64,000 nt of DNA from Paraspadella gotoi (lineage: Eukaryota; Animalia; Chaetognatha), in the NCBI GenBank assembly GCA_051294375.1, contig CM119265.1, positions 6,581,489 through 6,645,488 of the forward strand, given 5' to 3'. This document shows positions 27,584 to 59,696 of the stretch, piece by piece. Under the pieces are notes generated by a model. It saw nothing but the letters and a program-made list of their open reading frames with translations. It was not told the DNA's origin and did no database searches. Both the position numbers and the translations under genes were made by a program. Position 1 is the first letter of the stretch; each line of letters starts with the position of its first letter.

Positions 27584-27948
27584 GAGAAAAGAACTTTATC
27601 AAGTCTCAACAAACTTTTTAGAACAGTTGGACCAAACTGACTGATTTACATAGATTTCATTCCGATCTTATCCACCGTCTCTTCTCCCATTCAACTAAGT
27701 TCTTGCATTATTTTGCCATGAATTTCGATTAAGTATGCTAATCGCGTTTCATTCCTGTCCCGATTCTTTTTTTTTTTTGGTAGGACCATTTTATTCATTT
27801 TATATTATATATAGTTCGTTTTTGTCCAGGATTAATTGTAGTCTAATATTAATAGTTCGTCCATATTTAAAAGGATTTTTTAATGGTATAAAAGATTGAA
27901 AAATGAATTGTGCCATTCATGATTCTCCTGCGTATTATTTTAGTCGAG

Positions 27949-29843
27949 ATGAAATATTTAATAATCATCGCCCTTACGTGGGCCTTTGTCGCCGTTGACT
28001 CTTTATATTCGCCCGGCGACGGCGTCATCGATCTCACACAACATAACTTTCAAGCGAAGGTCATTGATAGTTCCGACGTCTGGCTTGTGGAGTTTTACGC
28101 TCCCTGGTAAGCACTAATCAAAAGTTGGGTGACATCATTTTACTATCGCCGACTAGGATTAAGGGTGTTTTAGGGTTAGGGGGATCATTTGTTCGCGGTT
28201 AACCAGTTTTTCGCTAGATAATTCATTTTTTACTTTTGTCTTAGGTGTGGTCATTGTCAGGCTTTGGCGCCGGAATGGAAGAAGGCTGCAAAAGCCCTCC
28301 AAGGTTTCGTTAAAGTTGGAGCTGTTGATATGGACCAGCACCCTTCAGTGGGTGGGCCGTACAACGTTAGAGGATTCCCCACTATCAAGATATTCGGAGC
28401 CAACAAGGATTCCCCCAAAGATTACAACGGCCAACGAACTGCTCAAAGCATCGTCGATGAAGCGTTGGCCGAAGTTCGAAACAGCGTAAGGTGAAAAAAA
28501 TGTACATATCCGGCCTGGTAGCAGTGCGTTACTTTTTTTTTCGAATTTATTTGACTTTAAAACTCCTGAGCTGAAGTTAAATCCACTTTTAACATCTGCA
28601 TAATTATAACTCGCTTCCCCAGGTCTCGTCTGGGTGGAGGCGGAGGAAGTTCTGGTGGTGGAGGTCGTGGAGGCAGTGGTGGCAGTTGCGGAGGTGGAGG
28701 AAGCGGTGGAAGTTGTGGGGGAGGTGGAGGAAGCTGTGGGGGAGGCGGTGGTGGAGGGGGTGGAGGAAGTTCCGGCGAGCCCGGAAAGGACGTCGTCGTG
28801 TTGACCGATTCCAACTTTAACGATTTAGTTCTAAATTCTGATGATATTTGGCTCGTGGAATTCTACGCTCCTTGGTACGAAGTGGAATTAAATAATCGAT
28901 ATACGTAGTTGATAGCACGTATAATAATGCTTTTATTTTTCCGTTGCAGGTGTGGACATTGCAAAAACCTTGCTCCGGCCTGGGCTGACGCAGCGACTCA
29001 GCTAAAAGGCAAAGTGAAAGTGGGTGCCCTTGACGCCACCAAACACACGATCAAAGCCGGAGAATACGGAGTCCAGGGATTTCCGACAATTAAATGGTTC
29101 GCGGGCGGCGGAAAAACTGCCTCCGATGCTCGGGACTACGAGGGTGGTCGAACTGCTAGCGACATCGTGAATTTCGCGCTGGAAAAGTTCAAGGCAAATC
29201 TTCCTCCCCCCGAACTCGTCCAAATCACTGTACAAGAAAATGTAGACAAAGCCTGCGGAAACAGCCAGCTTTGCATTATATCGTTTTTGCCCAACATTTT
29301 GGACTGTCAATCCGAATGCAGGTATTGACTTCTATATCAAAATACATTAAGAGTACTGCTTTTTAAATTTATCTACCATTTGACAGAAACAAATTTTTGG
29401 ATATTTTACGAACGATGGGTGAAAAGTACAAGAATCACGGTTGGGGCTGGTTGTGGACTGAGGGAGGTATTCAAAATGAACTGGAAAGTGCGCTGGATAT
29501 TGGAGGCTTTGGTTACCCCGCCATGGCTGCCGTCAACGTAAGGAAAGCCAAATACGCGCTTTTGCGGGGATCTTTCAGTGAAACTGGGATCCACGAATTC
29601 CTTCGAGCCCTGGCGAACGGCCGCGGATCAACCGGTGAGACTAAAAATCAAGGTTAAAATTGAAATGGAATTAAAATTTGGTTCTTTCTGTTTCTAGCAC
29701 CGATCAAGAACGCTCAACTCCCTCCCGTGGTCTCCAGCGATCCGTGGGACGGAAAAGACGGCGAGCTGCCCGTCGAGGAAGATTGGGATTTGTCCGACGT
29801 CGACCTTGACGAGGAAGATGAATCTCAAAAGAGGGAGCTTTGA
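27949..29843 (+). CDS. PDIA6: Protein disulfide isomerase A6 (P5), 6 exons
   Basis: Signal peptide, two VEFYAPWCGHC thioredoxin domains joined by a Gly-rich linker, [25 protein letters not shown]-terminal KREL. Confidence 0.95.
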
Positions 29844-30146
29844 GGTTTCTCTTCAGTCTTCGTTGCGTCACGTCGCCCCTTCCGACAACAAACTAAAATC
29901 CATTCATCATCCCCGGTTAACCAAGTCGATTCGAGTTTTGTTCTAAATTTTACATTCCAGTTTAAAATCTCATTACCGTGCCATCAAATAAAAAAGTTCG
30001 GTTTGTTAAGGAATGTTCCTTTTTAAAGTTAGAGCAAACTTCGAGGGAAATTTATTTTTAGATAGTTGCGTAACGCGTATGTTATTTAAATACGTCCGAT
30101 TATTTTTTTCATTCTCATTTTTTTAGACGACAGACTTAAAAACGAA

Positions 30147-30976
30147 ATGAAGGCTTACATAGTTCTCGGGTGTGTACTGCTGGCTTTTGTTGAGCTGATA
30201 AATGCCAAGAAAGGACCGAAAGTAACTCACAAAGTCTTCTTCGACATTGAGATAGGCGGCGAAAATGCAGGGAGAATCGTTCTTGGACTTTTTGGAAAAA
30301 CTGTGCCAAAAACCGTTCAAAACTTCATTCAATTATCAAAGGTAATAAAACTTTTTGAATTTTTTACCCAGCTTATGTAACGAGCCTACCATTTCTAGTG
30401 TCACGAGAGTGAAACGCCTCCGGCGGGGAAACTCTGCGGATACAAGGGTAGCAAATTTCATCGTGTCATCAAGGACTTTATGGTTCAAGGTGGAGACTTT
30501 ACCAACTTCGATGGCACTGGAGGAAAGAGTATATATGGCGAACGTTTTCCTGATGAAAACTTCAAGGTTAGAACTATTTCTCGATAAAATTTTAATTGGT
30601 GTGCGCAAAATTTATTTTGATTTGTTTTGTAGTTAAAACATTTTGGAGCTGGCTGGGTTAGCATGGCGAATGCAGGAAAAGATACCAACGGCTCTCAATT
30701 TTTCATGTGCACTGTTAAGACACATTGGTTGGATGGCAAGCATGTAGTTTTCGCAAAGGTGAAGCTATGGTTCATTTAGTTCGTTTTTAAAAGTTCGTTT
30801 TTAATGAAATACTGTTTCTTGAACAGGTTCTAGAAGGAATGCCAGTGGTGAGGAAAATTGAAGCGCTTGATGACGGCAGCAGCAAGCCTAAAAAAGAGGC
30901 GAAGATCGCGGATTCTGGAGAGATTCCAGTCGAAGCCCCTTTTGCCGTGCCCAAAGACCCGAGTCCTGAAGAATAA
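30147..30976 (+). CDS. PPIB: Cyclophilin B (ER peptidyl-prolyl isomerase), 4 exons
   Basis: Signal peptide, [65 protein letters not shown]-terminal VEAPFAVPK. Confidence 0.95.
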
Positions 30977-34813: not shown

Positions 34814-34827
34814 GTTGCCATGACAAC
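34814..34827. promoter_or_regulatory. RFX X-box GTTGCCATGACAAC with an adjacent CCAAT box (34792)
   Basis: 13/14 match to the palindromic consensus GTTGCCATGGCAAC, about 105 bp upstream of the first ATG of the cilia cluster. Confidence 0.85.
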
Positions 34828-34930: not shown

Positions 34931-35836
34931 ATGAACAACACTAAACCTACTTTTTTCGGGTCCGGCTATAAGGAATCGGGAAGGTCTGATCTCTATGCGC
35001 AACCTCAACGAATTTCCAACACGAACGGCCTCAGTAAATTTATCATTCCTCGTTTTCCGGCCGCGCGCAATCGAGTCGTGTCCAAGTACCCCCCGCCTTT
35101 TCACCCCGACGCGACCCCACACGGGCGATTAAATTTCCATGTGAGTGTAAAAAAGGCATGCGCTTCCCATCATGCTTCTGGCGTGCGTCTCTCCAAGGTT
35201 GTAATCATCGGCGACAGCGCAGTCGGTAAGACCGCCCTTGTCAATCGATTTTGTCGCGACGCTTTCGAGCGCGACTACAAAGCCACCATCGGCGTAGATT
35301 TCGAGGTGGAGCGTTTCGACGTGCTTTGTCAGCCTTACAACCTGCAGATGTGGGACACGGCGGGGCAAGAGCGATTCCGTGCCATCGCCGCCGCCTACTA
35401 CCGCGACGCTCACATCGTCATCGTCGCTTTTGATCTGACCCGACGAGAGACGCTCGACGCCGCAAGCCAATGGCTCAATGATGCACTAAAAGAAACAGAC
35501 CCGGAAAGGGCGCTGACGTTTTTGGTCGGCGCCAAGCGCGATCTTTTATCTGACGAAGAATTTGACGCCTTTGAACCGCGATGCATCAGCGTCGCCAATA
35601 AGCTCAGGGCCGAGCTTTGGATCACCTCAGCCAAAACGGGATACAACGTTGACGAACTTTTTCACCGTGTCGCGGCACTTGGCTTCGAATCCTTGGTGCG
35701 AGAAGAGAATCATTTCGAGGAGGAAGATAAAAAAGGAAAAATAGGAAATGTACTGACAAATACAGATGTGATAGATTTAAAATCTAGCGATTTGTTTGAA
35801 AAAAATCCTTCGGGCTGCTGTAAGCTTACTCGGTGA
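34931..35836 (+). CDS. RAB36: Rab34/Rab36-family small GTPase, single exon
   Basis: LSKVVIIGDSAVGKT, RFCRDAFERDYKATIGVDFEVERF, WDTAGQERF, N-terminal extension and near-terminal CC prenylation motif, all characteristic of the Rab34/36 clade. Confidence 0.88.
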   Translation: MNNTKPTFFGSGYKESGRSDLYAQPQRISNTNGLSKFIIPRFPAARNRVVSKYPPPFHPDATPHGRLNFHVSVKKACASHHASGVRLSKVVIIGDSAVGKTALVNRFCRDAFERDYKATIGVDFEVERFDVLCQPYNLQMWDTAGQERFRAIAAAYYRDAHIVIVAFDLTRRETLDAASQWLNDALKETDPERALTFLVGAKRDLLSDEEFDAFEPRCISVANKLRAELWITSAKTGYNVDELFHRVAALGFESLVREENHFEEEDKKGKIGNVLTNTDVIDLKSSDLFEKNPSGCCKLTR

Positions 35837-36128
35837 CTTCTTTTTTTTTTATCTATAAGCTACAGTAACGTAAGCATTTATATGTGATTCAATTGATCTT
35901 CGAGAAGTTCCTCGTAGAAGTTTAAAATTATGTTACATATTTATTTTTTACAGTACTGTCACTCTAAAACATTTTCGGAAATATTTAAAGCTTAACTGTT
36001 AAAAAGTTAAATATTTCTCTTAGGGAAAAGATTATGATTAATAATAGATTATTTTTAATTTTAGATCCTAAGTTGTAGTTCATTCAAATAGCGATGTCGC
36101 CGGCGATTCACGCACGAGTTGCAGGTGT

Positions 36129-36196
36129 GGTTCTAGTTGGTTGGCGACTTCGCCATGGCGATATCGCCATGGCGAAGTCGCCAACCAACTAGAACC
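36129..36196. repeat. Perfect 68-bp palindrome centred on GATATC
   Basis: GGTTCTAGTTGGTTGGCGACTTCGCCATGGCGAT|ATCGCCATGGCGAAGTCGCCAACCAACTAGAACC. Confidence 0.95.
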
Positions 36197-36340
36197 TTTT
36201 TCTACTACAATACTCAAAACTTTTGTTTGTCCCTTTTTATTTTTCATTTGATTTCTCTGTTTTATCAAGGCTACGATGATACGTTAGAGACTATAACTTT
36301 AATCACGATAGCCGACTGTAGGACATAAGATATTATTATA

Positions 36341-39300
36341 ATGGCGGACGAGGGCGAAGCCGTCACAAGTGCCGACGACGCCGGCGCCACCACCACCGAT
36401 GGTGCTGACGCCTCAACGCTCGCAGCTGAGGATTTGGAGGCGCCAGAAACGACGGATGCCGCCGAGAGTGGCGAAGACGCCCCCGAAGGCTCGCCGTCCG
36501 AGGATCCCCACGCCGCAGAGGAGGGGGAATCTCAGATGGCAATATCCGAACGGACCAGTCAATCGGCGGGCGGCGAAGAATCAGCCATGGAGGAGGGGAC
36601 GAAGGAAGAGGAGGAAGAAGAAGGGGAGGGAGAAGAGGAGACAGAGGGAGTGGAGGGGCAAACTGGAGGGACGAGGGCGGCGACCACGGAAGGGAGCGGC
36701 GAAGAACCGGAAATGTCGATGGCACAAGTGCGTTTCATTTTTGTTGTTGTTGTTGTTCTTTTCTATTCCTAGGTTGAGTATAACGTTTTTCAGTCGGATC
36801 TGCTTATCTCCCCTCAATCTTGTCGGTCATTCACTTAAATCATGTCAGAACATCGAATTATGATAAATTATCTTAGGCAGATCCGACATTGTTTGATCAA
36901 ACTTGTTATTTTGATTGTTTTGTATTTCAGACCGGAAATACCTACGTAGGCTTAGACGGTCAACTCTAATGTTGTCACTTTACAATTTACTTATTTCTTT
37001 ATTTATAAATATCAGATGAATTTAAAAAGAATATGTTTTCTTTTTATCTGGATGTGAATCCCTGCCCGTTATTCTCCCATTCAACAGCGTTTGATGATGG
37101 ATCTGGATGACGAAGACCTCGTTCCCGGCAGCAGCGAAGATGAAGGAGAGAGCGAATTTCAGGACGAGGAGAGCGGAGAAGAGGAGGAAGTGGAAGACGA
37201 AGGAGTCACGCGCGACGATCTCATTGGCGAATACCACGCCATGCTTGAGGAGAGAGAGTCGCTGCAGCAACGACGGTGACGATTGCTCGAAAGTTGACCT
37301 TACTCTTGAGCGACTGCTCGTTAAGGACTTATTTAAAATCCAGGCATTTCTTGGAAAACAAATTGGCGGAATATTTTCGGAAGAAACGAGATGATAAAGC
37401 CGAAGCTGATAAGAAGCCGCAAACTGCGGAACAGGAGCAGAGATACGTAAAATATATGTCGCAGTTGGAGGATTTGAAAAACGAGGTGAAGTGTTAATTG
37501 TTTATCAGTTGATTTCTTCGATTGTACATTTATTCTTTCATGCGTTATTAATCACAGGAAATCAGCGAGCAAGAGATATTTCAAAGAGAACTTCAGGAAT
37601 TGCGCGTTTTGTGTCAAAGATTCGACCAAGAGGTCGTCGATGAACTAGAAAGCTTCAGGTAAAATTAAGCAACAAATACTAGTAATTATATTAGAAATGT
37701 TATGTAATGGGGTCAGAGGGATCGCCCATGAGTAAACTGCTTGTCTTTTTGATAAACTTTGGCCAGATTATATAAACGTAACGTCGCTCTGGGCGCCATC
37801 AATAGCCGAACCGGAAAACCGTTAACGGTTAAAGACATCGACGTTTACGAGGCGCGGGAGACGCAAAAGACGGCAGAGGTCGTCGCCGTCAGACTCGAGA
37901 ACATCAAATTAAAAAACAGGTGACTATAAAATATAAACAAAAGTCTTAACGTAAAATACGATTTAAAAGTAATGTACACTGCGGCGCTAAAAAAAGAAGA
38001 CACTTCTTTCACACCGAAAAAAACTATATTGGATGGATGGATTTTACTAAGATATAGAAACATAAAACAAAGCTTATTGAAAGATAAAGCGATTGGTCTA
38101 GGTCCCATTAAAATCGATCAAAGCGTCAGAAAGTTATAGGATGTCAAAGTCGATTGGTACAAAACATATGACGAGAATAAATTAATTTTAATCAAGAAGA
38201 GTCTTTAACTTTTTTTTATTATAATATGTTTATAATATATGCGATTTTATTCGAATACAACGAGGTTGATTCAGTACAATCATCATCAACAAACAAACAA
38301 TATGAAATTAGCTGAACAAATTCAGCATCAATATCTGTAAGGATAGGTGTCAACCATTTTCAACCTAAATCAAATTAAAATAAGTAAAAAAATTATATAG
38401 AAAAATAATCTTTTAAAAATAAAAAAAAATAGTTGAGTGATAACTTACCCAAAATTAATTTCAAAGCTTTTTCAGATTAAAATTTTTTTTCCTTATGGCA
38501 TCTCATGTTAAAAAAGACTAATATAAACTCTTACAATTATATTAAAATTATTTTTTTAAATTTTTATTATAAAATTATATTTTGATTTTGAGATAATTTA
38601 AAAAAAATTGATTGTTTTCAATATTTATTATTAAAATGCCATATTTGGCAGCAATTAAAAAATATTTTTATAAAAAAGTAATATAAATTTATTGCCAACC
38701 CTTTTATATATTTAATTCCATTAAGATTTTATTAATTCTATATTGTAAACATAAGTCAGAAAAAGAAGTTTAATTAATACTAACCTTTAAAAATCACTTT
38801 TTCCCCAATTCTGTTTTGAGACTCTGACTTTAAAGTCTTGCTATATAGTGGTGTATTTAAAAATACATAGCGTCTTTTTTTTTTTTTGCGTCGCAGTGTA
38901 AATTGTAAGTTATTTTAAATTGATTTCAATCTTAAAAAGGTTGAAAAAACGCGAACAGCAATTGAAGGCCAAAGAGGAGTTGGCCGAGGGACTTCATCTC
39001 ATCGATTTCGAGCAGCTCAAAATAGAAAATCAAACTTACAACGAGAAAATAGAAGAGCGAAACGAGGAATTGCTGAAGCTAAGAAAGAAAATCACGAGCA
39101 CAGTGCAGGTGTCACTTCTTTTTTCTTCTCACTGAAACCATTTTTTACTTCTATAGTCTTCTTTCCTATTCCTTTTTTTCACGAAAAAGGTCCTCACCCA
39201 TTTGAAAGAAAAATTGCAATTCGTTCAAGCGGAAAATCAAGTGCAAAAGGTCAACCTGAAAACCTTGGAGTCCACCGTCGCGAGCAGGAGGGACGTTTTA

Positions 39301-39810
39301 TCGAAGACGAAACAAGGTTATCGAGGAAATGAGATTTTCCCCCTTTTTTTCGAGCTTTGATCTATATGTACAAAATTCTTTAGGTTTCCGTTCCCACGCT
39401 TTCATGAATTACAATTTTAAATGACGAGATACAGTATACTAACGTTGATTTTTTATTGTTAAACTTTCCTTATCGTGGCGACTTTTCTTTTCCTAGGTCG
39501 AGACGCTTTGCGAATCGATAATCAGAGACTGCGGCTCAACTGTGGCATGCTTGGAAACGAACCTCTGCTCAGGGACTTTGAGGAAAAAAAGAATGAGGCA
39601 GAGATGCTCGAGCAAAAACTTGAAAGGTGGAGCCTAAAGAATAAAGAGTGAAGACTAAAGGGGGAGGAAATCGGAAACTAGAACTGTTTGAAATTCAAAT
39701 TTCGTTGTTCCTTTTGTTTTTCCAGATTGAAACGTCAGCACGCGGAACTCACGTTGAGTTGCAGTGGAGTGCGCAAAAAGATTGAACAAGTTCGCGCGAT
39801 TAGGTCCTAA
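36341..39810 (+). CDS. CCDC96: Coiled-coil ciliary protein CCDC96/CFAP184 (DUF4201), about 9 exons
   Basis: Acidic N-terminus, KLAEYFRKK, AVRLENIKLKNR, KEELAEGLHLIDFEQLKIENQTYNEKIEERNEELLKLRKK, GMLGNEPLLRDFE. Confidence 0.9.
36787..36908 (+). mobile_element. Internally deleted HINE-family copy
   Basis: Both sub-terminal repeats (GTCGGATCTGC ... GCAGATCCGAC) and internal sequence shared with 43997-44742. Confidence 0.65.
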
Positions 39811-45913: not shown

Positions 45914-46372
45914 TTTTATCATGCCTCGGTTTTTTGATCGCGATTAATTGAATTTCTGATTGCAGGGCGTCCCCAGTTGGTTGGCTAGAAATCCAACTAC
46001 GAATAGTCTACCCAGGAGCGCGAGAGCCATCTCAAGCGTGGTTTAGATTTAGTGTGTGCTATTGTCGAATGTCGAATGGTTCTTATCACCAAGACGTAAA
46101 TTTCAATAGAGAATAGACGTAATTTGTACATCCTTTTTCGGGATTAGATGACCAGTATGATTGAGACGAACCCCCCCTCACTCGCTTTTAACAATCATCC
46201 TAGCAAGATACAACACGATATCTCGCACTCCACTTTATTTGTATTCCTGGGGGTTTTTTTGTCCTTACGGCACTAGTCATGAATTATTGTTTTGTCACTC
46301 TTTCGGTGCGATCTCTCAATTTGATGTTTTTCGTCTTCAGGAAAAATATTTTAGCTTAGTTTTAAGCGAATC

Positions 46373-46844
46373 ATGTCGAACCCCAAAGAAATAAAGACTG
46401 AGGATTGCGAATGTGAGGCCAGGGAAGCGGCCGAGTTCGACGAAGTTAAGTTTATTGACAGCAAACCAATACCTGAACAGCAGCCTTGCTATCTTCCCGG
46501 CAACGTTGTCTTCAATTGCACGGATCCCCCTAAGATGCGAACGGTAGAGAGAAGTCCAGATCCTTGGTTCAAAGGTTTGTTAAGACTGCTGGTTGATTGA
46601 TTGAGGCGAAATCGTAACGAAAAACTTTTGTGAGCTTGTCTCAGGTTATGGCGGCATGCCCCAGAATCCGATGTATCGTACGACCAACAACGACTACGGA
46701 AGCGGCGTCCCAGACGTCCACACTTTTCCGGCTGTTTTTTACGGCACTTCAAACGCGTACACCAAGAACGCAGGCCAATGTGGCATGTACCGCGATCATG
46801 GACTCAACACTTCGCTCGACAAGTCCAGTGTCCCGGAATTCTAG
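46373..46844 (+). CDS. PIERCE-family microtubule inner protein (C9orf116/C15orf65, DUF4490), 2 exons
   Basis: PWFKGYGG..PMYRTTNNDYGSGVPDVHTFPAVFYGTSNAYT..CGMYRDHGLNTSLDKS; intron approx. 46575-46644. Confidence 0.85.
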
Positions 46845-47083
46845 TTTTCTGTCCTTTGTCAATTTTCATTACATTGAGACTAATTACATCTCATTTGACC
46901 TATAGTTAAATAAACGAAAGTCGCTAGATAATAGGTCAATCGGATCAAACTACATCGTTATCTCAATCGCTTCCTAGTCATTATGATGTCATTTTGTTAC
47001 ATTTGTACGCCTTTCATTTTTTCAACGGTATGATTTTTAGATTTTTGTCTCGACCAGTCATTGATTGAACGCGAGTATAATCG

Positions 47084-49181
47084 ATGGAGTCGCCGCCATC
47101 TCAAGCCGCTGAGGCTTCGGCCGAAACCTCGAGCTCCACCGAGGCTGCGCAGCCTTCCAAATGGCTTGACGCCCACTATGATCCCATAGCCGGCCTGTAC
47201 ACATTCTCCCAGTGTATGACACTGGCCGATATCTACGCCGACGGCGATTACAAATTGGTCATCGCCGACCTCGGCAACGGACTGACGAACATGAAGCTAA
47301 AGGTCTTTAAAGGAACAACAATGATTCAGCAGAACACTATCATCGATCTTCCGACGGGCGTCTGCTCCTTCTTCATGGACGCCAACGAACCGAAGACTCC
47401 TGCCGTTGCGGTCGCTTCTGGGCCCTTCATCTATGTTTACAAGAACCTGCGTCCCTACTTTAAGTTCACCCTACCGTCCCTACCTGTCAACCAGCTGGAG
47501 CAGGATTTGTGGAATCAAGTCCGGGAGGACCAAATAGACGTCAACATCCTGAGGGAGATGTTGGACGGAATTCGTCAAGACGGTAGCCAGGGCACCCTGA
47601 CCGTCAGATCGCTAAAATTTCTCCAGGTTGGACGAAGGCCTTTTTTCTTTCATCATATTTTAATTTTTAAAAAGTTTCTTTTTGTTAAACTGGAAATGTT
47701 TGTAGCTTCACCCCGAGGGATTAGAGTCTTTCGCCAACACATACAAGCACGCACCGCTCAAAAAACAGACTGTCATCACCTGCCTACAAACACTAAAAAA
47801 GTCGATGGCCGACGACGACGCTATAAGTTGCCTAGTTTTGGGAACGGAGAGTCAATCAATTTACATTCTGGACCCCGAGGTTATTATAATTGTTTTTTTG
47901 TATGAAATTTTCATTAACTTGAATTTTTCTTAATTAGAATTAATAACGATAATAATTACAAACACTATTTCTTAGGCCTTCACCGTTTTGTCAACTATGA
48001 CACTTCCTTCGGTTCCTGTGCTGCTCCACGTTTCCGGTTTATACGACGTTGAATTTCGCGTTATCGTCGCCTGTCGCAATGGCGGCGTTTATGTCGCGCG
48101 TCGAGGCCAAACCAGTGGGAAATTATTGTTTTCGCTAAATGCTCAGGCTGTGGGACTCGACAAGGTCAATAAGACAATAGTCGTCGCTTGTATGGATCAG
48201 TCGCTGCAAGGCTACAGTACCAAAGGGAGGTGAGGACACTGCTCAATTTCTTTAGGAGCAACAATGAAACGCGAGATTAATTAAGTCTTTTAGGTCGCTT
48301 TGGTCTGTAAATCTTCCGGCCAAAGTTCTGTCCATGGCGCCTATGGATTATTCTCAACGAGGTTACCAAGCCGTTTTAGTTGGTCTGGCCAATTGCGAGG
48401 TTCACATATACAACGAAAAATTTCTCGTTCACAGCATGAAGACAGAGGATCTCGTGACAGGTTCGTCATTTGTCGGAGATTTTAACTCGTCTTGTGTTCA
48501 TGGTTCATTCCTTTTTTTTCAGGTATAAGGTTCGGTCAATTCGGTCGCGAATCCAGCGCCCTCATCCTCACGACTCGCGGAGGCGGACTTTCCATCAAAA
48601 TCCTCAAACGTAACGCGACGTTCGAGGGCCGAGAGTCCGCTCTCGGGCCACCCGCCGCTCAGAGCTCACGCCTCAACGTCCCTAAGAAGACAAAACTGTT
48701 TGTGGATCAAACGATGCGTGAGCGTCAAAACTGTATCTCCATGCATCGTCGCTTCCAGCAAGATCTTTACCTCTTGCGTCTCAAGACGGCGCGAGAATAT
48801 TGCAAGACGTTGGACACGTCGCTGACGCCCGTCAGCACCAACGCATCGGACCCTTTAAAGCTTTCGGCACAGATTCAAGGCATCGGACCAACGTTCAAGC
48901 TGACCGTCTCTATACAGAACACCAGCTTGACAGCTCCCTCCATGGGCCTAGCCATTTCTTTCGGCTACGACGACTCACTTTACCAACTGCAAGATACCTT
49001 TTTAAAACTCCCTATGCTAGTACCGGGCCTCAATTACGCGTTCGAGACTTTCGTCGAAAGCATCAGCGATAAAGGTGTCGCGGATACGATCAAAGTGTTT
49101 GTACTCAAGGATCAAAGCTCTGCGCCACTCATCACGGCAATGATAAACATGCCCGTCTCGGAAACCGTAGTCGTTGTATAA
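47084..49181 (+). CDS. BBS1: Bardet-Biedl syndrome 1 protein (BBSome), 5 exons
   Basis: SKWLDAHYDPIAGLYTFSQC, LADIYADGDYKLVIADLG, YVYKNLRPYFKFTLP, LNVPKKTKLFVDQTMRER, LITAMINMPVSE. Confidence 0.97.
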
Positions 49182-49404
49182 CTCTGTACACTCAGATATT
49201 CTTTCTCACTTCATTTTTGTTAAAAGAAAAAAATTCTTTTATACAACGTTTCGTTTTATAAAAACGAAGTCGGTAAACAAAAGATCACCCAATTTTGCCC
49301 ACCACTCTAGTCACATTTAAAATCCTTAGCTTTTTTCAAACAGAAATTAAATTACAACTACTGTACCAAATTCCATAAAAACATTATCGAGAAAAATATT
49401 TAAA

Positions 49405-49887
49405 ATGACAAGCTACCGAGCTGCCGATTCGAAGCGTGAGGAGTTCCGGAAATATCTCGAGAAAGCGGGAGTCTTGGACGCCCTTACCAAGGTTCTCGTC
49501 GGCCTGTACGAAGAACCGGAAAAAGTGAGATTCTCTTCGAGAAATAAAAAATAGAAAAAAGATTAATAATTAGTCACGATTTGGAATGATAACGGCGATT
49601 TTCCCACCTTAGCCGAACAATGCTCTGGACTTTCTGCGCCAGCATTTGGGTGCGACTCCGGACACGGCAGACGTGGAGGCCCTGAAGCTCGAAGTCACAG
49701 AGTTGAGGAACAAGGTCAACGTATTATATTTATAATTTACCAATAGAAATCTCATCTTTGAACGGTTCGGTGACTTTAAATTCATCCTATATTTTAGGTG
49801 GAGCAACTGAGTGACGAAAACGCGGACCTTCGCGCTAAACTTCAGCAATACGAGCCCCCGGCTGACGATGCCCCGCCCGCTGAATAA
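49405..49887 (+). CDS. MYCBP: c-Myc-binding protein (AMY-1/FAP174; axonemal component), 3 exons
   Basis: MTSYRAADSKREEFRKYLEKAGVLDALTKVLVGLYEEPEK-PNNALDFLRQHLG. Confidence 0.95.
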
Positions 49888-50453
49888 GTCGACTTTAATT
49901 TTGTTTCTTTTGATTATTTTTCCGACGCTCGGAAGCCAATTTTGCCGTCATCGCTCATGTATAATATAGACGTAGTGATTCTTATTGCCTCAGCTTAGCG
50001 TTCAAGTACGAGTATATATTCATGTTAAGAAAACCAAAGTGAAACGTGTTCTGTACAATGGAGGATTTTGACCTTAATCGCCCATAAAGTTCCTTTATTA
50101 ATACCGAATCATGTTTCGATAAACAATCCTTATTGCTTATGAAAAACTGATCAAGTTCAGTTTTATTGTAAGGTAGTAATATAATTTGCTGGGAAAACTT
50201 TTAATAAATTATATCGTGTGAAAAGACTTTATAACTTTAATTTATGAAATTGCTATTTTTGAAATTTATTTTATGGTAGTACATAATATTTCTTGTTGCT
50301 TCCATTTTTTCTCTCAAGGTCGCAATACTATTAGGATTTGTATTTTTTTCTCTTCAACTTCAACTTAAATATATTTAACGTCCATAATATTGCCATACAA
50401 TAAAACCTATTATTGCTTCGAAAGGTTTTCTTTTTTTTTCGCGCATAGTTTAA

Positions 50454-52826
50454 ATGGTTCCTAAGAGAGAGATGGACCCCGTTTTTCTGGCATACAGTTG
50501 CTTCAGGCGCAGAAAGTTCGAGGACTGCGTGAGGCTATGCACAGACGTGCTTGATAGAAATCCATACGACCAGGTTAGCGTTTCGATATGCGTTCTTTGT
50601 ATGTAAAACTACAACAGTGTTTTATGACAGGCCGTTTGGGCGTTAAAAACGCGTGCCCTTACGGAGCAAGTTTACGTGGACGAAGTGGAAAACGACGAAG
50701 AGGGTATCGCCGAAATGTTGATGGACGACAACTCCGTCTCATCGGTAATCTTTGTTGTTGTAGTGGTTAATTTTTTATTATAACTAAATTGAAATAACAA
50801 ATGATATGCTCTACTTTTTTGTGATCGTTGAGGATTCTTTTATTATCTTGTCACCTGTTGAAGCGCAGATTGCCCGACCTGGGACGAGTCTGAAGACTGC
50901 GCAAGGCCGTCGTCCCGGAACCACGGGACCCTCTCAGGGAGTCCGACCGATTTCTTCTTCCGGTCGCCCTCTCAGCGGTTTTGTCAGACCAGGCACTCAG
51001 GGAGCCAACAGGCCTTCCACCATGGAACAGGCCATCAGGTTGAAAGGGGTACTTTTACTATAATTATTTAATTAGTAAAAAATTGTCTGAAATTAACATG
51101 TTACACGTGAAAAAAACGCTAAAAGAAAGACTCTTTTAATAAGGGCGCCACGTACTGCGCACACAGCACGACCCGTGACTTCGGCCTCCGGGCGATTCGT
51201 TCGCCTTGGGACGGCATCAATGTTGTCAAATCCCGATGGACCTTTTATCAATTTGGCCAGACTCAATCTTGCCAAGTACGCCGCAAGACCACAGGTAAAA
51301 AAGGATTTGAATGAGGCCACAGAAAATGGCTAAAAATAAAGATTTTATTTTATTCTAGTTGGCCAAAGCATTGTTCGAATATATTCTTTATCACGAAAAC
51401 GATGTCAGAAACGCCCTAGATCTCGCTGCGAAGGCGACGGAGGCTTCGGTTTTCAAAGATTGGTGGTGGAAAGTTCAATTGGGTAAGGCGGTTGAATTTT
51501 CCTTGCACCATTGCGCTATTGCGCTAAATATTTTTTCAAATTTAGGAAAATGTTATTATCGTTTGGGTCTTTTTCGCGAGGCAGAGCAGCAATTCAAATC
51601 CGCAATGAAGCAACAGAATATGTTGGACACTGTTTTGTTACTGTCGAAAGTTTACGTCCGTTTGGACCAACCGTTAACTGCCATCGATGTTTTCAATGAG
51701 GTAAACAGTTTTAATTTCGAAATTGTGGAATTAAATTAAAACAAAAAAAATAATTAAAGCTATTTTTTTATTTTTTGTTCAGGCATTAGACATTTTTCCC
51801 AATGATGTCAACCTTTTGACGGGAATCGCTCGTATTTATGAAGGCTTGGATGATTTGGCAAAGTCAGTAAAATGTTACAAAGAGGTGTTGCAACAAGTAA
51901 GTTTACGTATTAGTTGACAATTTTAGAATATAATAAATAATATTAGTTTTATTATTATAATTAGCAATTATAATCTTTAGGATTCCACTCATATCGAGGC
52001 CATTGCCTCATTGGGAACCAATCATTTTTACTCTGACCAACCAGAGGTTGCTCTCAGATTTTACAGAAGGCTTCTACAGATGGGAGTCTACAATACAGGT
52101 TTTGTTCATTAATAGTTAGTTTTGATTATTATACGTAGTTTTTCTTACCTAATCATTAGAACTCTTCAACAACTTGGGTCTGTGTTGTTTTTACGCTCAA
52201 CAATACGACATGTCGCTAACATGTTTCGAGCGAGCTCTTTCCCTTGCAACTGACGAAACCGTGGCTGATGTTTGGTATGTTTTTCTATCTCACCTGATCT
52301 TAGTAGCCAAAACTGAATCAAAAATTGTTTACCTCTTTTTTAGGTACAACATCAGTCATATCGCTGTCGGCATAGGTGACCTTGCGTTGGCTTATCAGTG
52401 TCTCCGACTAGCTATTAGCGTCACCAATGATCACGCTGAAGCTCATAACAACTTAGGTAGCAAGTACTGTGAGTAAACTCATTTGCGAATTATGATATAT
52501 TGTTGTAAATTTATGTAAAGGAGTGTTGGAGATAAAAAAGGATCATGTGGAAGCTGCAAGAGGCTTCTTTCAAACGTCGTCTTCTTTAAACCCACATCTC
52601 TACGAACCACAAGTACTGTGTGTGTTTACTCGGGCGAATTAATTATAGTAGTATAATTTTATTATACTTTTTTATTTTTAAGTTTAATTTCGGATTGCTG
52701 GCCAATCAAATCGGGGATCTTCAATCATCTTTCAACTCGATCAAAAAGTCCCAAGAACTTTACGGGGATCACAAAGATTCCATCGATCTCATGACCCAAT
52801 TAAAGAAACATTTTGCCATGATGTGA
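50454..52826 (+). CDS. TTC8: TPR protein TTC8/BBS8 (BBSome), many short exons
   Basis: FRRRKFEDC..NPYDQAVWALKTRALTEQVYVDE, IARPGTSL, SGRPLSGFVRPGT, ARPVTSASGRFVRLGTASM, KDWWWKVQLGKCYYRLG, NNLGLCCFYAQQYDM. Confidence 0.97.
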
Positions 52827-52954
52827 TTCTTCTGATCACTCCATGTTTCTGTCACTACTAACTAGTCAAATAGTTATCAATTTTGTCAATGTTGTCACTT
52901 TCTCTAACTTATTACATCTTAGTTGTCTTGGAACCTATCCTACGTTTTGAAAGG

Positions 52955-54688
52955 ATGTTTCCCGACTCTAATCGTCTGATGGTTAAGTGTTTTGAAGAGG
53001 ATCACGGAGTGTTTCGTCTTTCTGACTGTTTGGCGCGGATAGTGGGTCTCGTCTCTCGTTCAGAAGCCTGTTGGTCGGAAATACGCGATGCGTACGAGGC
53101 CTACCACGAACGAGTTGGAACTTGCTCCGCCCTCGACGCCCTTCTCATTAACGCCTTTTTAAGCGTCGCATCTCATGGTTTCGGATCCAATATCCCGGCC
53201 AACATCATATCCAAGTGGTTGTTTCAAGCCGCAAAGCTTTTCTCGCATCGAATATATTGCAAGGACTTCTGGCTATCTTGCGAGAATTTTTTAGAACAGC
53301 ACCGCGTTGGCAATGACGACGACGACGACAACAAAGAAAACGCTTACGACAACGCTGAAAGCAAATTTAACTTTTTCGATTATAAAACATCATCTGCAAA
53401 ACTTAATGAAAATAATATATCAGACAACCAAAAAAGCAAAACGGTCGAAGGTGATCCGGAAGATGAGTTCGACCACTTATTCAGCGGAGACGTCAAGACT
53501 CAGCCATCCCTCTTAAAACCAATCGCTAAAAACAAAATACGAAATTTTGAATTATTGAAAACAATTCCTTCGAAAAACCCGAGTAATCTTTTTGAACATT
53601 CTGCCTTTCATCAGCGAAGTCGCCATTTAGTCGCGGAGACGGCCTCGCTAAACGTTGTGTCTTTTGTTCGCGACCTCGGCACTCGACTCGATCCTGACGA
53701 TGAAATGAAATTATCGTCTGACGTCGTCGCCAAATTTCTGAACCCCAACATGACGGGCGCCGATCTTTCTCTACTTTGCAATTTTTCGTCAATGGTTCGC
53801 CTCGAGCCTCTCGTCGGTGTCCCTTCCGGTCACTCGCGCGTCGTCGACGGAATCGTTTTGAGACTCGATGGTGACGTCGATTCGGGACAAAAACGCGCCG
53901 TTCTCTTCGCCGGCGATTTCACTTTCACTTACACCCATCTCGGCTTCAAGAAGAATCTCAACTCGGCCGCCATCGTCTTCAAAAACCCCTCTCAAGAATC
54001 ATTGACCGAACATTCGGGAAAAGAGAAATGGCTGTCGCGTACTCAGAACTTAATCGAAAAGCTTCGAATAGGTCTCGTCGTGTGCAAAGGCAACATAGAT
54101 TTCAATCTCAAGAGTTTCTTCGCGCAACGGAGGATCGGTTTCGTCGAAAACGTAGGATCGGAAAAATACCGGCTACTCGCGAAACATCTCTCTTCGCGGC
54201 CGATAACTTACGCCACCACTGAACAAATGAACTTTTCCGCGATCGGTGTCGTTTCGCTGTCAAAAATCCAAACCAACTCACTTTTTCCCCATCTTTACGC
54301 TGTATCATCCACTAATAACGCACCACCGTCTTTTGTTTCCGCGCTAGTCTGCGCCCCGAGCGATGCGTGGAGCGAGCTTCGCTGTGACCGAGTCTCTCAC
54401 GCCCTCCGTCGGTGGGAACTGTTTTTCGAAGACGGCGGTCTGGTCTGTGATGCGCGTGCGTTGCTCTCGGCCTTTCGTCAAAGCCTCGACGCCTTCGACG
54501 ATGAGATGGGATACTCTCGAGATCTGGCCGACGTCATGCGGTGTCAAATGGAGTCTTTGCTTGAGGGAGACTCCTTGGAGAATTGTCATTTGAACAAATT
54601 TGTCGTCGAGAGGCTGTTGGAACTTTCCGCTGTAATCGCGGATTTTTCGTTGACCGTTTCGCCAGAATGTGTTAATTCCAGTTTTTGA
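52955..54688 (+). CDS. BBS12: Divergent chaperonin-like BBS protein, most like BBS12; single exon
   Basis: Chaperonin apical-like region SRVVDGIVL..AVLFAGDFTFTYTHLGFK..KWLSRTQNLIEKLRIGLVVCKGNI, recalling the BBS12 GDLTENYRHLGF motif. Intronless. First ATG after the acceptor at 52922. Confidence 0.72.
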   Translation: MFPDSNRLMVKCFEEDHGVFRLSDCLARIVGLVSRSEACWSEIRDAYEAYHERVGTCSALDALLINAFLSVASHGFGSNIPANIISKWLFQAAKLFSHRIYCKDFWLSCENFLEQHRVGNDDDDDNKENAYDNAESKFNFFDYKTSSAKLNENNISDNQKSKTVEGDPEDEFDHLFSGDVKTQPSLLKPIAKNKIRNFELLKTIPSKNPSNLFEHSAFHQRSRHLVAETASLNVVSFVRDLGTRLDPDDEMKLSSDVVAKFLNPNMTGADLSLLCNFSSMVRLEPLVGVPSGHSRVVDGIVLRLDGDVDSGQKRAVLFAGDFTFTYTHLGFKKNLNSAAIVFKNPSQESLTEHSGKEKWLSRTQNLIEKLRIGLVVCKGNIDFNLKSFFAQRRIGFVENVGSEKYRLLAKHLSSRPITYATTEQMNFSAIGVVSLSKIQTNSLFPHLYAVSSTNNAPPSFVSALVCAPSDAWSELRCDRVSHALRRWELFFEDGGLVCDARALLSAFRQSLDAFDDEMGYSRDLADVMRCQMESLLEGDSLENCHLNKFVVERLLELSAVIADFSLTVSPECVNSSF

Positions 54689-55400: not shown

Positions 55401-55566
55401 TCCATCATGAACCATATTACTTTAATATTATATTTTTTATGTTTTTTTCCAGTGAATATAGAATTTTGTTACAGAAACTTAAAGCTTACTAGTAATTAAT
55501 CAACGTCACCGCACCTTATTTATCGCATCATTTATTTAATAACGCCAAAGAGAATCCCCTTCAAAA

Positions 55567-58028
55567 ATGGCAGCTCCGCCTCCTCCAGAGCGCAAAAAGA
55601 TCTTCATCAATGACGTTGATGAGTACCTTGGAAAGTTCTTGTCCAAGTGGTTGTCTCGCGTGGCGCCGGGCGACACTCTCAAAGGCGCGGGCGAAGGCGA
55701 GGGTGACGAGGATGAGGCGCCGCCCGTGGAAGTTGGCGAGGACGGCGTCAATTTAAACGCTTTCATCGTCGTCGGAACACTGATTGACCCGGAGAGCAAG
55801 AAACCGGAATGGGTGACCGAGATCGTGGACAAGAACAACCCTCAAGAATACGCGACCGCCCTGGAGGAGGCCGATATCATTATCTACAACATCGTTGAGA
55901 GCGCGGACAACATCGAACCGGCGCTGGACATCGTCCGAACGCTGAGCACGGAGGGGGCCACTGCCATCGTCAAAAACCGAATCTTTATCATGGTCTCGAC
56001 GGTGTTGACGTGGGCGCGAAGCAAGCCGCTCGATCCAGATGACCCGGAAATTCCCTTCACCGACGACGACTATCGGAGAAGGAAGCCGCATTTGGTAAGA
56101 AGATGTTTGTTTTGTCGAATCGATATTTTTTTGACTACACGGATATTAATCTGACATTGATAAAACAAAATTTATGTTTTGTAATTCGTTTAACTCGTAT
56201 TTCGCCAATATTTTTTTCTTCCTTAAAAACAAGCAGCTTTTTTTTCTCTAGAACTTCAAAGAGCATTGCGCCGCGGAAAAGTTGGTAGTGAAGATTGGAA
56301 AGTCGAATAAAAATAAATTGGCCACTTATGTCGTCGCCGCCGGCCTCGTCTACGGATGCGGCGAGGGAGTCTTTCACTTCTTCTTCAAAGAGGCCTGGAA
56401 CAACGCCACTGTCCTCCCCATTTTTGGCGATGGCACCAACGTGCTTCCGGGCATTCACGTCAGCGACCTAGCCCAGATCTTGCACAACGTGATAGACCAG
56501 AAGCCGAAGACTCGCTACATAGTGGCTGTCGACGACTCGCAAAATACCCTCGAGGAGATCGTCAAGGCCGTCAGCGACTCGCTCACCACCGGCAAAGTCG
56601 TCAAGATGCCCAAAGAAGAAGCGTCGCTGATCAAAGGAGTGACCCAGATGGAGTTGGACATGCTCCTCGTTAATTTGAGGATGGAGAGCGTGTTCGTCAA
56701 GGAAAACTTTCGCGTGATGTGGGTGTCGGAGTCCGGGCTGGCTGCCAACATCGTCAGCATTGTCAAGGAGTACAGATTCACCAGACAGCTTCTGCCGATT
56801 CGCCTCTGCATTCTGGGACCCCCGGCGGTCGGAAAATCATCCGTCGCTAAGCATCTTTGCGAACATTACAAGTTACATCATATTCACTTGAAGGACGTTA
56901 TCGACTCGGCTATTGCACGAGTCGAGCAAAGCGCTAACAACGCCCTGGAAGGTGATTTTTCAAAATTTATTTAAAAAAAATCGTTGTTTGTTATCTATAA
57001 AAATATAAATTTATCTTTTGTTTTGTTGTTGTTGATCGCAGACTCAATTCAAGTTTGTACCATTATAATAGAATTTATCCATTATAATAGTATTTTCAAA
57101 GACATTGTAAATCTTATAAACTCCAGGGACGGATCAGGAGGAGAACGAGGACGACACCGCGGCCGAGGATGCCGAATTGTTGGAGGCTCTCAAAGCCAAC
57201 ATCGACGAGAACAACGGCCGCCTCGACGACGGATTCGTCGTTCGTTTTGTCCGACACAAGCTGATGTCGCCGCCGTGTCAAAACCAGGGGTTCGTCCTCG
57301 ACGGCTACCCGAAAACCCTGGCCCAGGCCAAGGAGCTCTTCACTTCTGCCGATGACGACATAGACCCCGAGGATGCTGATAAGCCCTTGTACGAGACCCG
57401 TATTATGCCGGAGATGGTCGTCAACCTCGAGGCGCTCGACGAGTTCCTCAAGGAGCGAGTCATGGCGCTGCCCGAGAACGTGGTCCACGGGACACACAAC
57501 ACTGAGGAGGGTCTTCTACGTCGCTTGGCCCAATACCGCGCCGACAACACGGAAGACGAAACCGTCCTCAATTACTTTGACGAATTCGAGATTCACCCGG
57601 AAAACTTTGACGCCACCAAGGACCCCACCGACGACATGAGCTTCACCGCCCAAGAGATCATCCGTTTGCTAGGCGCGCCTCGAAACTACGGCCCGACAGC
57701 GGAAGAGATCGAGGAGCAAAAACGTCTGGCGATGGAGGCCCGTTTGAGACGTGAACGAGAGGAAGAGGAGGAGCGGCAGAGAAAGGAGGCGGAGGAGCTG
57801 TTAGAGCGAAGGAAGAACGAAGAGATGTGGGCGGCCAAGTTGCAAGAAGTTAAGCGCCAAGAGTACGAGCAACTGGAGACCCGGTCGGTGCCACTGAGAA
57901 ATTATCTCATGAAGCACGTGATGCCAACGTTAACGCAAGGTCTGGTCGAATGCTGCAAGGTCCGACCGGACGATCCTGTGGATTATTTGGCAGAGTTTCT
58001 ATTCAAGCACAATCCTCAAGTGGATTAA
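55567..58028 (+). CDS. AK7: Adenylate kinase 7 (ciliary), 3 exons (approx. 55567-56094, 56251-56951, 57128-58028)
   Basis: STVLTWARSKPLDPDDPEIPFTDDDYRRRKPH, P-loop ILGPPAVGKSS, CQNQGFVLDGYPKT, PRNYG, C-terminal Dpy-30 motif PLRNYLMKHVMPTLTQGL..RPDDPVDYLAEFL. Confidence 0.96.
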
Positions 58029-58280
58029 TGCTCAATTTTATTGTTTGTAATTTGTAACTCATGGAAATCACGTTTTAGTATTTTAATGTCACTGATTGCA
58101 CTGATATATTCTAGTCATCCCAAGGCTGAAGTTTATGATCAGTTTGATCACTTGCATGTCGATTTTACTGATAAAATACAAGCATTTAACGATAGGTTTT
58201 AACCGATTATGTGGTGAAACTAAATTATTTTTACTTTTTTTTTTTTCAGTTTTATTTTTAAAATTAAAAATATATTGACA

Positions 58281-59696
58281 ATGCCACTTCCGGTTCGTGA
58301 CTTCACGTGGCACGAGACAATCGATTGCGTAATGCTCTCCGTTCCACTCAAGGGCGTCAAACGCGAAAAGATCGACATCCTCGCCGCCGACGATTACGTC
58401 AAAGTCAACTTCCCTCCTCACTTTTTCGAACTCTTCCCCTTCGCCTCCATCGATGCCGACCGCAGCACCGCCACCATCGCCGAGGGTTGCGTTAACTTTC
58501 GTCTTCTTAAAAAATCCCAGGAAATTTGGGGCGCGCTGGAAGCGCCCTTCAGCCGCGATAAGGCCATCTGCCGGGACAAACGACAGGCCGCGTTGGAGGC
58601 TTTTCAAAAAGGGGAAGAAGAAAAGCGAAAGCAAAGAGACGTGACGAAGAACGAATTAAAAAGATTCACCGTGCAGAAACAGATCGATCGCGAAGAAATC
58701 GATCGACGACGCATCACCGAAATCGTGGAAACGACAAAGAGCGACGCCATGGAGGATCTGGAAGAATGGCGCAATGCCCAGCAGAAGGCAGAGGAGGAGG
58801 AGGCGAGAAAGGAGGAAGAGACGAGGGCGAGGAGAGCCAAGATGCTAAAGGCGAAGATGGAGAGAGAGGCGAGGGCGAAGAAGGAGAAAAGGGACGACGA
58901 TTTGGGCGACGGAGACGTCATCTTTGACGAGGCGCCTCCCGTCAGAAGGGGAGGAAAAATTTGCGTCAACTTTACCGAAAGGGTGTTTCCGACGCCAGTC
59001 AGAGAGTCGACGACGGATGCGGAGAATGAGTGGTTGAAGAAGCAAGCGGAGGCACGAAAAGCCTGCGACGTCCAGGACGAAAATCTCAAGCCTGAAGAAA
59101 AAAATCCCGAATGGCTGCAAGAAAAAGGCGACACCTTCTTCCGTCAGGAAAACTACCAGGCCGCAGTAAACGCTTATAGCCACGGAATCCGCCTGGGCGG
59201 AAAGAACCCGCTTCCTAGCTTGTTCTCCTCCCGCGCTGCCTGCCACCTGCGCCTGCGCAACCTTCACAAGGCGCTCGAGGATGCCACGCGTTCTCTAGAT
59301 CTGCTGACGCCGCCGGTGCCGCAGAACGCGGCCGCGCGTGCTGAGGCGCACGTTCGTCGCGGGACCGCTTTCGCCGGCCTAGAATGTTTCGTCGAAGCAC
59401 TCGTCGAGTTCGAAGGCGCCCACAAGATCGAGCCCGGCAACGAGGACGTCAAAGCGGAAATCGTTAAGCTGAGGAAAATGATACAGGGGAGTTCGGAGGA
59501 GAGCGCGAGGAAAGAAAGAAGGGACAAAGCGAGGGGCGGAGGAGACGGAGTGGACGAATTAGAAAAACGAATGGCGACAACCGCTGTTTGCAACGAAGAC
59601 GATGAAGATGATGAAACTGAAGATATCGACATTGACGATGTGTTAAAGAAGCAACAAGAGAGAAGAAACGACGCGGTTTTAGAAAGACACAAGTGA
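58281..59696 (+). CDS. DNAAF4: Dynein axonemal assembly factor 4 (DYX1C1), single exon
   Basis: N-terminal CS/p23 domain MPLPVRDFTW..SVPLKGV..KVNFPPHFFE, GKICVNFTERVFPTPVRES, EWLKKQAEAR, EEKNPEWLQEKG plus TPRs (LTPPVPQNAAARAEAHVRRGTAF). Confidence 0.95.
   Translation: MPLPVRDFTWHETIDCVMLSVPLKGVKREKIDILAADDYVKVNFPPHFFELFPFASIDADRSTATIAEGCVNFRLLKKSQEIWGALEAPFSRDKAICRDKRQAALEAFQKGEEEKRKQRDVTKNELKRFTVQKQIDREEIDRRRITEIVETTKSDAMEDLEEWRNAQQKAEEEEARKEEETRARRAKMLKAKMEREARAKKEKRDDDLGDGDVIFDEAPPVRRGGKICVNFTERVFPTPVRESTTDAENEWLKKQAEARKACDVQDENLKPEEKNPEWLQEKGDTFFRQENYQAAVNAYSHGIRLGGKNPLPSLFSSRAACHLRLRNLHKALEDATRSLDLLTPPVPQNAAARAEAHVRRGTAFAGLECFVEALVEFEGAHKIEPGNEDVKAEIVKLRKMIQGSSEESARKERRDKARGGGDGVDELEKRMATTAVCNEDDEDDETEDIDIDDVLKKQQERRNDAVLERHK

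Follow-up and report, generated by a model that had tools for sequence, protein, structure and literature searches.

Splice acceptors without donors suggest spliced-leader operons, possibly function-specific, in arrow worm DNA

Operons whose transcripts are resolved into mRNAs by spliced leaders (SLs) have been published for chaetognaths, or arrow worms, in Spadella cephaloptera (RPS14–PCNA; PMC2481426) and in the Paraspadella gotoi genome (PMC12460157). As described in the examined text of both papers, the leaders are 33–36 nucleotides (nt) long, start with GGAAGC and end with AAA, and first genes can be trans-spliced as well. In the Spadella operon the poly(A) site lies 3 bases from the next acceptor (PMC2481426). 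The examined part of PMC12460157 reports that about half of the genes are trans-spliced and 18% lie in operons, the longest of nine genes, that there is no operon-specific leader and that operons are rich in genes of nitrogen and protein metabolism. Tunicates (Ciona, Oikopleura) also have SL-resolved polycistrons, with very short spacing in Ciona (as cited in PMC2481426). Here we analyse a 64-kb stretch of DNA (contig CM119265.1; hereafter the window), in which an initial annotation had flagged 13 AG dinucleotides ahead of 12 genes as SL trans-splice sites. We consider it probable that the two rows of genes concerned are chaetognath operons, each with one promoter and each cut into mRNAs by a leader added at AGs that lack a donor. 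The trans-splicing mechanism is already known in arrow worms, and this locus is a new instance of it.

The window is compact and intron-rich (GC content 39%), and 47 of its 49 modelled coding introns are 57–180 nt long. Row 1 (plus strand, 24922–30976) consists of three endoplasmic reticulum (ER)-folding genes, HSP90B1, PDIA6 and a cyclophilin. Row 2 (34931–59696) holds 11 genes, mostly cilia-related and all on the plus strand: RAB34/36-like, CCDC96, ZMYND12, FAM166, PIERCE, BBS1, MYCBP, TTC8, BBS12, AK7 and DNAAF4. A minus-strand EMI/EGF gene divides the rows. Same-strand, apparently tight clusters are common to this locus and the operons described in the examined chaetognath text; the longest there has nine genes, whereas here up to 11 mostly ciliary genes come with an X-box and three ER-folding genes with an ER stress response element (ERSE). 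The published text examined does not spell out any intercistronic motif, whereas the word CTAGTCA recurs here. The leader evidence fits chaetognath and not tunicate leaders, and the stop-to-ATG gaps, all between genes on the same strand, measure 128–878 nt (below 250 nt in 4 of 12). The X-box and the ERSE, each ahead of the first gene of a row, suggest operons that are specific to a function, with up to 11 genes in the longer one.

Leaders can be recognized on orthologous transcripts of the same lineage, through translated 5′ ends and not through DNA. A search with exon 2 of HSP90B1 found 28 sequences at 86–89% identity, the next named animals among the matches listed reaching at most 74%. In a tree of 121 rows, none left out, the window gene and 28 database rows form a 29-row clade (FastTree support 100, stem 0.29), which lies apart from those of the named molluscs/annelids, vertebrates, amphioxus, cnidarians and spiders. 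One member of this clade, P0147 (84% identical), starts with MGKLISTTSLVQKISIK ahead of its signal peptide (M-G-KLISTTSLV-QK). The chaetognath leader SL3.2, as published in PMC2481426, translates as KLISTTSLV*, so that 9 of 9 residues match; at the nucleotide level the fit takes 1 edit, equalled by 0 of 300 shuffles, and the leader ends 14 nt before the ATG. The DNAAF4 orthologue P0243 (69% identical) starts with MGSLKFIFTCLK and, read from its first codon, agrees without a mismatch with both conserved leader ends, the 5′ and the 3′, at a separation of 32 nt; none of 372 fetched N-termini and none of 5,000 non-coding ORFlets (short open reading frames) does as well. Its leader-to-ATG distance is 34 nt, compared with 31 nt from AG 58249 to the ATG in the window. 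Judging by these translated ends, the last gene of row 2 and the first gene of row 1 are trans-spliced in relatives, and the lineage of the window is very likely chaetognath. An origin from a sponge was set aside, because named sponges are missing from the top matches and the leader points to another lineage (sponge leaders: PMC10282587). From lineage and orthologues, the proposal that the flagged AGs are SL trans-splice sites has good support; it falters at two AGs that are probably cis-paired and at two that an RNA contig passes unspliced.

Three further candidates for a leader-bearing N-terminus were rejected: P0140 (1 mismatch when anchored, but 85 of 300 shuffles are as good), its cluster-mate P0250, in which the sequence continues upstream, and P0148, which showed no clear fit. 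A homolog search with PDIA6 found no member of the clade among the 120 matches listed, metagenome scans with DNAAF4 and with the 3′ part of SL3 gave no match, and the 64-kb window contains no Rfam match or leader-like pattern indicative of an SL RNA gene.

All 13 flagged AGs are present as annotated, each after a pyrimidine-rich stretch. Scored with a splice matrix built from the 49 modelled coding introns, 13 of them RNA-confirmed, they reach 4.0–12.8, compared with leave-one-out quartiles of 3.3, 5.0 and 7.1 for real acceptors; three outscore every real acceptor, and in 5 of 12 genes the flagged AG is the top AG of its gap. Of the 12 genes, 8 have an acceptor scoring at least 7.1 no more than 160 nt from the ATG; the corresponding shares of 2,000 random non-coding positions are 24% (plus strand; p = 0.002) and 9% (minus strand; p = 2e-6). 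With the distance cut to 50 nt, 4 of the 12 genes still have one, compared with 9% and 4% of the positions (p = 0.018 and 0.001). Across 18 combinations of distance, threshold and strand, p exceeded 0.05 in 5 of 9 on the plus strand and 2 of 9 on the minus strand. The caveat attached to the initial annotation is that T-rich AGs arise by chance; the enrichment of AGs near ATGs exceeds chance, modestly.

The donor deficit is a stronger signal than this enrichment. A donor scoring at least 6.2 is found 55–200 nt upstream of 1 of 12 flagged sites. For modelled short introns the figure is 40 of 47 in-sample and 75% with leave-one-out scoring, and for random non-coding positions it is 32%. An acceptor with no cis donor of usual strength at intron distance upstream precedes 11 of the 12 genes, 36269 being an exception and 39945 probably another. 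An unpaired acceptor ahead of each gene, as had been claimed, is therefore indicated for most genes, and not at 36269, which has a strong donor, or at 39945, which is apparently used in cis; both AGs probably serve, at least partly, as acceptors in cis. Since the probable cis donor at 39804 scores only 3.9, a low donor score is not proof of an unpaired site.

Among 7-mers, CTAGTCA ranks first when the final 150 nt of each of the 12 gaps is scored (p = 4e-12), and none of 300 random non-coding control sets equals it; the top enriched 6-, 7- and 8-mers are CTAGTC, CTAGTCA and CTAGTCAT. There are 6 copies in 64 kb, both strands counted, against a chance expectation of 4.0 ± 1.8, so the count is not above chance; all 6 are on the plus strand, 30–132 nt before a flagged AG (30–61 nt in 5 of 6), namely those of FAM166, PIERCE, BBS1, MYCBP, BBS12 and DNAAF4. 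AATAAA before the AG is absent from 5 of the 6 gaps with the word and from 3 of the other 6, numbers too small to test. CTAGTCA appears neither in the main text of PMC12460157 nor in the examined supplements of PMC2481426, and Fig. 5i or the tables of PMC12460157 may contain it.

The closest described counterpart is the nematode Ur element, which in the examined parts of PMC7668243 and bioRxiv 10.1101/642082 reads TAYYTT and lies some 50 nt ahead of the acceptor. CTAGTCA is likewise a short word tens of nt before a downstream acceptor (30–61 nt in 5 of 6) and may work like a Ur element, by analogy; its sequence is different and does not follow the Ur consensus. Set against the nematode system, chaetognaths are reported in the examined text of PMC12460157 to have no operon-specific leader. 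A hairpin adjoins the nematode element, whereas no common hairpin was found at the six CTAGTCA sites (z-scores −1.0 to +1.7). Read on the opposite strand, the word gives TGACTAG, which occurs exactly in leader SL2.11 and differs by one letter from the major SL2.0, as these are given in PMC2481426; this is a post hoc match with a chance of a few percent by rough count, and we treat it as a lead only.

In the model that we favour, each row would be transcribed from a promoter ahead of its first gene, introns are removed in cis (13 observed), and each upstream mRNA would end close to the next acceptor, as in the Spadella case. A leader would then be added to the downstream cistron at a donor-less AG, as the orthologues suggest, and at many junctions CUAGUCA on the RNA, through the position that we observe, might couple 3′ end formation upstream to leader addition downstream. 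The sites at which leader addition is best inferred are 58249 and 47040, followed by 52922, 46340 and 41766. The gaps before CCDC96, TTC8 and AK7 (504–878 nt) may hold internal promoters, which makes 11 genes an upper bound for the row-2 operon.

RNA contigs from three runs were compared over 39800–47600, a region that covers the flagged sites of 4 of the 12 genes. None of the runs listed as containing the region is recorded as RNA. Only run X1 covers the genes, and X2 and X3 match repeats only; X1 represents RNA, because 13 GT..AG introns have been removed. Its record 1 (4,039 nt) is unbroken from 39943 to about 46811 with these 13 introns spliced out and joins ZMYND12, FAM166 and PIERCE, thereby crossing two gaps longer than 250 nt (by the stop-to-ATG measure, in which the extents of untranslated regions (UTRs) are open to error). 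The matching piece starts at 39943, and 981 further letters lie upstream; the 3-letter overlap 39943–39945 fits donor 39804 and fits neither donor 39790 nor a leader ending in AAA. We therefore regard 39804–39945 as a likely cis intron across the CCDC96–ZMYND12 junction. Record 2 (4,538 nt) has its first letter at 47041, directly after the BBS1 AG, and carries no loose letters there. This start fits trans-splicing because chaetognath leaders end in AAA in the published examples examined (PMC2481426, PMC12460157). It is also what competition between the final A of a leader and the genomic G would be expected to give; we take it as a hint only. From BBS1 to the next AG is 2,002 nt, and record 2 therefore carries sequence past BBS1. 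If the gene models are exact, it would end at 52893, 25 nt past the motif at 52862; being based on length, this end was not used as support. The stretches 46812–47040 and 39804–39942, uncovered by contigs, were given no evidential use.

Several observations weigh against the operon model. Record 1 passes AGs 41766 and 46340 unspliced, which is what the initial annotation had named as evidence to the contrary, and AG 39945 of ZMYND12 is apparently cis-spliced in it. Among the loose contig ends listed, none falls at the flagged AGs of the four genes covered, and no leader was seen joined to any flagged AG of this genome in the assembled contigs over 39800–47600. The strong donor at 36125 can be paired with AG 36269 of CCDC96, 8 of the 12 stop-to-ATG gaps exceed the published 250-bp operon rule, and 6 of the 12 gaps have no CTAGTCA; when whole gaps were scored, 11 of 300 control sets, whose segments may overlap, equalled its p-value. 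On the side of the leaders, of 5 tested clade proteins whose N-terminus is extended or starts oddly, only 2 gave a clear fit, an unanchored fit of P0243 to three published leader forms took 6 edits (1 of 300 shuffles as good), the PIERCE orthologues in the clade start at Met with no N-terminal extension and are uninformative, and the HSP90B1 tree (120 matches listed plus the window) has no named chaetognath or tunicate row. For the candidate promoters, the counts of X-box and ERSE in the window are not above chance, the strictest X-box pattern does not match the site at 34814, and the most degenerate one also matches 4 internal gaps. Graph assembly prunes short leader branches and keeps precursor or abutting-UTR paths. 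We weigh the pass-through in record 1 lightly because contigs drop variants, can join overlapping RNAs and cannot show starts or single transcripts.

The alternative that survives best, although we hold it to be unlikely, keeps the AGs as SL acceptors and gives each inner gene its own short promoter and outron; the rows would be co-regulated neighbours and CTAGTCA a directional core-promoter element. More chaetognath genes are trans-spliced outside operons than inside, and an operon-related motif lies in open chromatin (examined text and Fig. 5i of PMC12460157). In the window, the CCDC96, TTC8 and AK7 gaps are long, the AK7 gap holds 4 CCAAT/ATTGG, and a contig spanning several genes does not show a single transcript. 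Gaps of 128–271 nt, by contrast, would also have to fit the upstream gene's 3′ UTR, and the CTAGTCA gaps hold 0–1 CCAAT boxes, compared with 4 before the first gene of each row, and no stricter X-box.

Less likely still, and in our view quite improbable, is that the rows yield stable mRNAs, fully spliced in cis, which stay polycistronic or arise by read-through, or else have UTRs that overlap; the AGs would then be cis acceptors of an ordinary or cryptic kind. Record 1, fully spliced, unbroken across two flagged AGs and apparently cis-spliced at a third, speaks for this, as does record 2, whose length requires downstream genes. It sits poorly with the donor deficit and the leader-bearing orthologues; in addition, the DNAAF4 contigs of relatives measure 1.57–1.66 kb for proteins of 419–485 amino acids (aa), a single-gene length, and several of the resulting 5′ leader regions would contain upstream ATGs. 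The least probable reading of all gives the AGs no role and takes them for T-rich sites that arose by chance in AT-rich DNA, since an equally strong AG within 160 nt at 24% of random plus-strand positions, and weaker thresholds that are not significant against that control, have to be set against three sites above all real acceptors, two AGs that coincide exactly with a junction or a start in the RNA contigs, and the linked CTAGTCA pattern.

An X-box, GTTGCCATGACAAC, lies at 34814..34827, 103 nt before the first ATG of row 2, and is near-palindromic; two stricter published X-box patterns match only one of 14 gaps, which is that of this gene. An ERSE (CCAAT-N9-CCACG) lies at 24704..24722 on the plus strand, about 200 nt before HSP90B1, as the only exact match in the window, with a one-mismatch copy at 24669. 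From sequence and position, the X-box is a likely RFX site and row-2 promoter and the ERSE a likely promoter of the ER row; both elements are informative by position only. The X-box patterns are from PMC2375033, the examined part of which lists BBS1 and BBS8 as RFX targets in fly and worm, and the ERSE consensus is from PMC5890977, where the examined part has GRP94 as an ERSE gene. The same elements therefore occur here as in the RFX/X-box and ATF6/NF-Y ERSE regulons described there; in those regulons an element precedes each gene, whereas here one element precedes the first gene of a row. A bolder version of the model is possible but doubtful: row 2 would be an 11-gene ciliogenesis regulon on a single RFX X-box promoter, row 1 an ER-stress regulon under a single ERSE, and CUAGUCA a chaetognath intercistronic signal, an independently evolved counterpart of the Ur element that may pair with the leader (UGACUAG in SL2.11).

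The genes of the window are not among the 119 trans-spliced Spadella genes in the examined list of PMC2481426, which includes only a PPIA, and their names do not occur in the examined supplements of PMC12460157, the tables of which may already list row 2. A literature search turned up no publication linking operons, spliced leaders or trans-splicing, X-box or RFX, and cilia. If the model is right, operons would be sorted by function under an inducible or cell-type promoter element, in contrast to the published picture of housekeeping, little-regulated operons, and knowing which genes share an operon would help to find new cilia genes. Among the human orthologues, several are ciliopathy genes. 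A strand-specific 7-nt word would likewise offer a testable handle on how downstream cistrons are marked without an operon-specific leader, a question studied mainly in nematodes so far.

Gene families were assigned by Pfam, homolog, PDB or Atlas matches. The names PPIB, ZMYND12, MYCBP, BBS12 and AK7 go further than the family match and are assumed here, in part after the initial annotation, as is the ciliary role of RAB34/36, CCDC96, ZMYND12, AK7 and DNAAF4. In the models of CCDC96, FAM166, ZMYND12, PPIB, BBS1 and TTC8, false automatic exons were replaced by way of RNA joints or by hand, and the 5′ exons of CCDC96 are provisional.

Row 1 opens with HSP90B1/GRP94 (24922..27583, plus strand as are all genes below unless stated; 3 exons, 812 aa). 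Its paired 5′ UTR intron at 24842..24912 is present as annotated, with donor AAG|GTAAGT at 24842 (score 9.6) and an AG at 24912, 9 nt before the ATG. The contrast drawn between this first gene and the inner ones holds for its strong cis donor and is weak otherwise, because P0147, its orthologue, also undergoes trans-splicing, with the leader 14 nt ahead of the ATG. PDIA6 (27949..29843; 6 exons, 473 aa) has a candidate acceptor at 27942..27943 (score 4.7), 5 nt before the ATG, with a best donor of 4.8 at 27780; the Gly/Ser linker encoded at 28630–28770 is of unusual length and contains three Cys, and the protein ends in KREL. The cyclophilin (30147..30976; 4 exons), the PPIB of the initial annotation, has a start that resembles a signal peptide and a candidate acceptor at 30125..30126 (7.7), 20 nt before the ATG, with donors of 5.4 (99 nt) and 8.6 (211 nt) and an AATAAA at 29987.

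Row 2 begins with the single-exon RAB34/36-like GTPase gene (34931..35836), which the initial annotation had missed. The minus-strand gene with EMI and EGF repeats (31100–34600) is head to head with it, an arrangement in which the X-box region may act as a promoter in both directions. The CCDC96-family gene (36341..39810) follows a probable ordinary paired 5′ UTR intron at 36125..36269 (donor 10.7; 145 nt). A stronger AG at 36064 (7.3), ahead of a 60-nt exon and this intron, may be the true leader acceptor. Starting 4 nt past the donor is a perfect 68-bp palindrome (36129–36196; 34-nt arms with no loop, z −17, three 14-nt repeats), which may be a transposon remnant, a regulatory site or an assembly fold-back. 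CCDC96 stops at 39810 when unspliced and at 39977 when 39804–39945 (plus strand; donor 3.9) is removed, with 8 residues added (...IRSFSKLCMDT instead of ...IRS); the flagged AG is the acceptor in record 1, the joint itself being inferred. An AATAAA directly adjoins the ATG of the MYND-finger gene that we take to be ZMYND12 (40037..41649; 8 exons, 7 of 7 introns RNA-confirmed). The two mRNAs may be alternative products of one precursor, with AG 39945 used in cis or in trans.

The FAM166/CIMIP2-family gene (41921..45988; 6 exons, 5 of 5 introns RNA-confirmed) has AG 41766 (7.6; best donor 2.1), with CTAGTCA at 41720..41726, 40 nt before. PIERCE1/2 (46373..46844; 2 exons, intron RNA-confirmed) has AG 46340 (10.4) and the word at 46273..46279, 61 nt before; BBS1 (47084..49181; 5 exons) has AG 47040 (5.8) and the word at 46974..46980, 60 nt before. 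For the MYCBP-like gene (49405..49887; 3 exons, exon 1 matching a flagellar chain of PDB 7som), the AGs at 49329 and 49343 score 4.5 and 4.0, CTAGTCA at 49307..49313 lies 16 and 30 nt before them, and a donor of 6.1 at 49273 could pair. TTC8/BBS8 (50472..52826; 12 exons) has its acceptor at 50447..50448 (7.3), 23 nt before the conserved ATG, with donors of 6.1 and 6.9, and its gap holds two AATAAA and no CTAGTCA. An in-frame ATG at 50454 lies 5 nt past this AG and 18 nt ahead of the conserved start, and in CCDC96, ZMYND12 and FAM166, too, ATGs ahead of the start come after the AG.

The gap between TTC8 and the single-exon chaperonin-like gene (52955..54688), presumably BBS12, is 128 nt, as annotated, and holds AG 52922 (5.5; best donor 1.9) with CTAGTCA at 52862..52868, 54 nt before. 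The adenylate kinase gene with a Dpy-30 motif (55567..58028; 3 exons), which we take to be AK7, has an acceptor at 55451..55452 (11.0), 114 nt before the ATG; its 878-nt gap, with AATAAA and CCAAT boxes, is possibly a break in the operon. The last gene, single-exon DNAAF4 (58281..59696), has AG 58249 (12.8; best donor within 200 nt, 1.8), 31 nt from the ATG, with CTAGTCA at 58111..58117, 132 nt before.

Outside the rows, a haem peroxidase gene at 765–7256 looks cyclooxygenase-like by eye, with a weak Pfam An_peroxidase match on 1 of 4 pieces scanned and no CTAGTCA. A multi-exon minus-strand gene at 59900–63400 is by eye of IgGFc-binding type, with CDG-DNDCDG repeats, and gave no Pfam match on 3 pieces. 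A high-copy intronic repeat with GTCC runs, at 43100–44800 and 36790–36900, is very deep in X1 and weak in X2 and X3.

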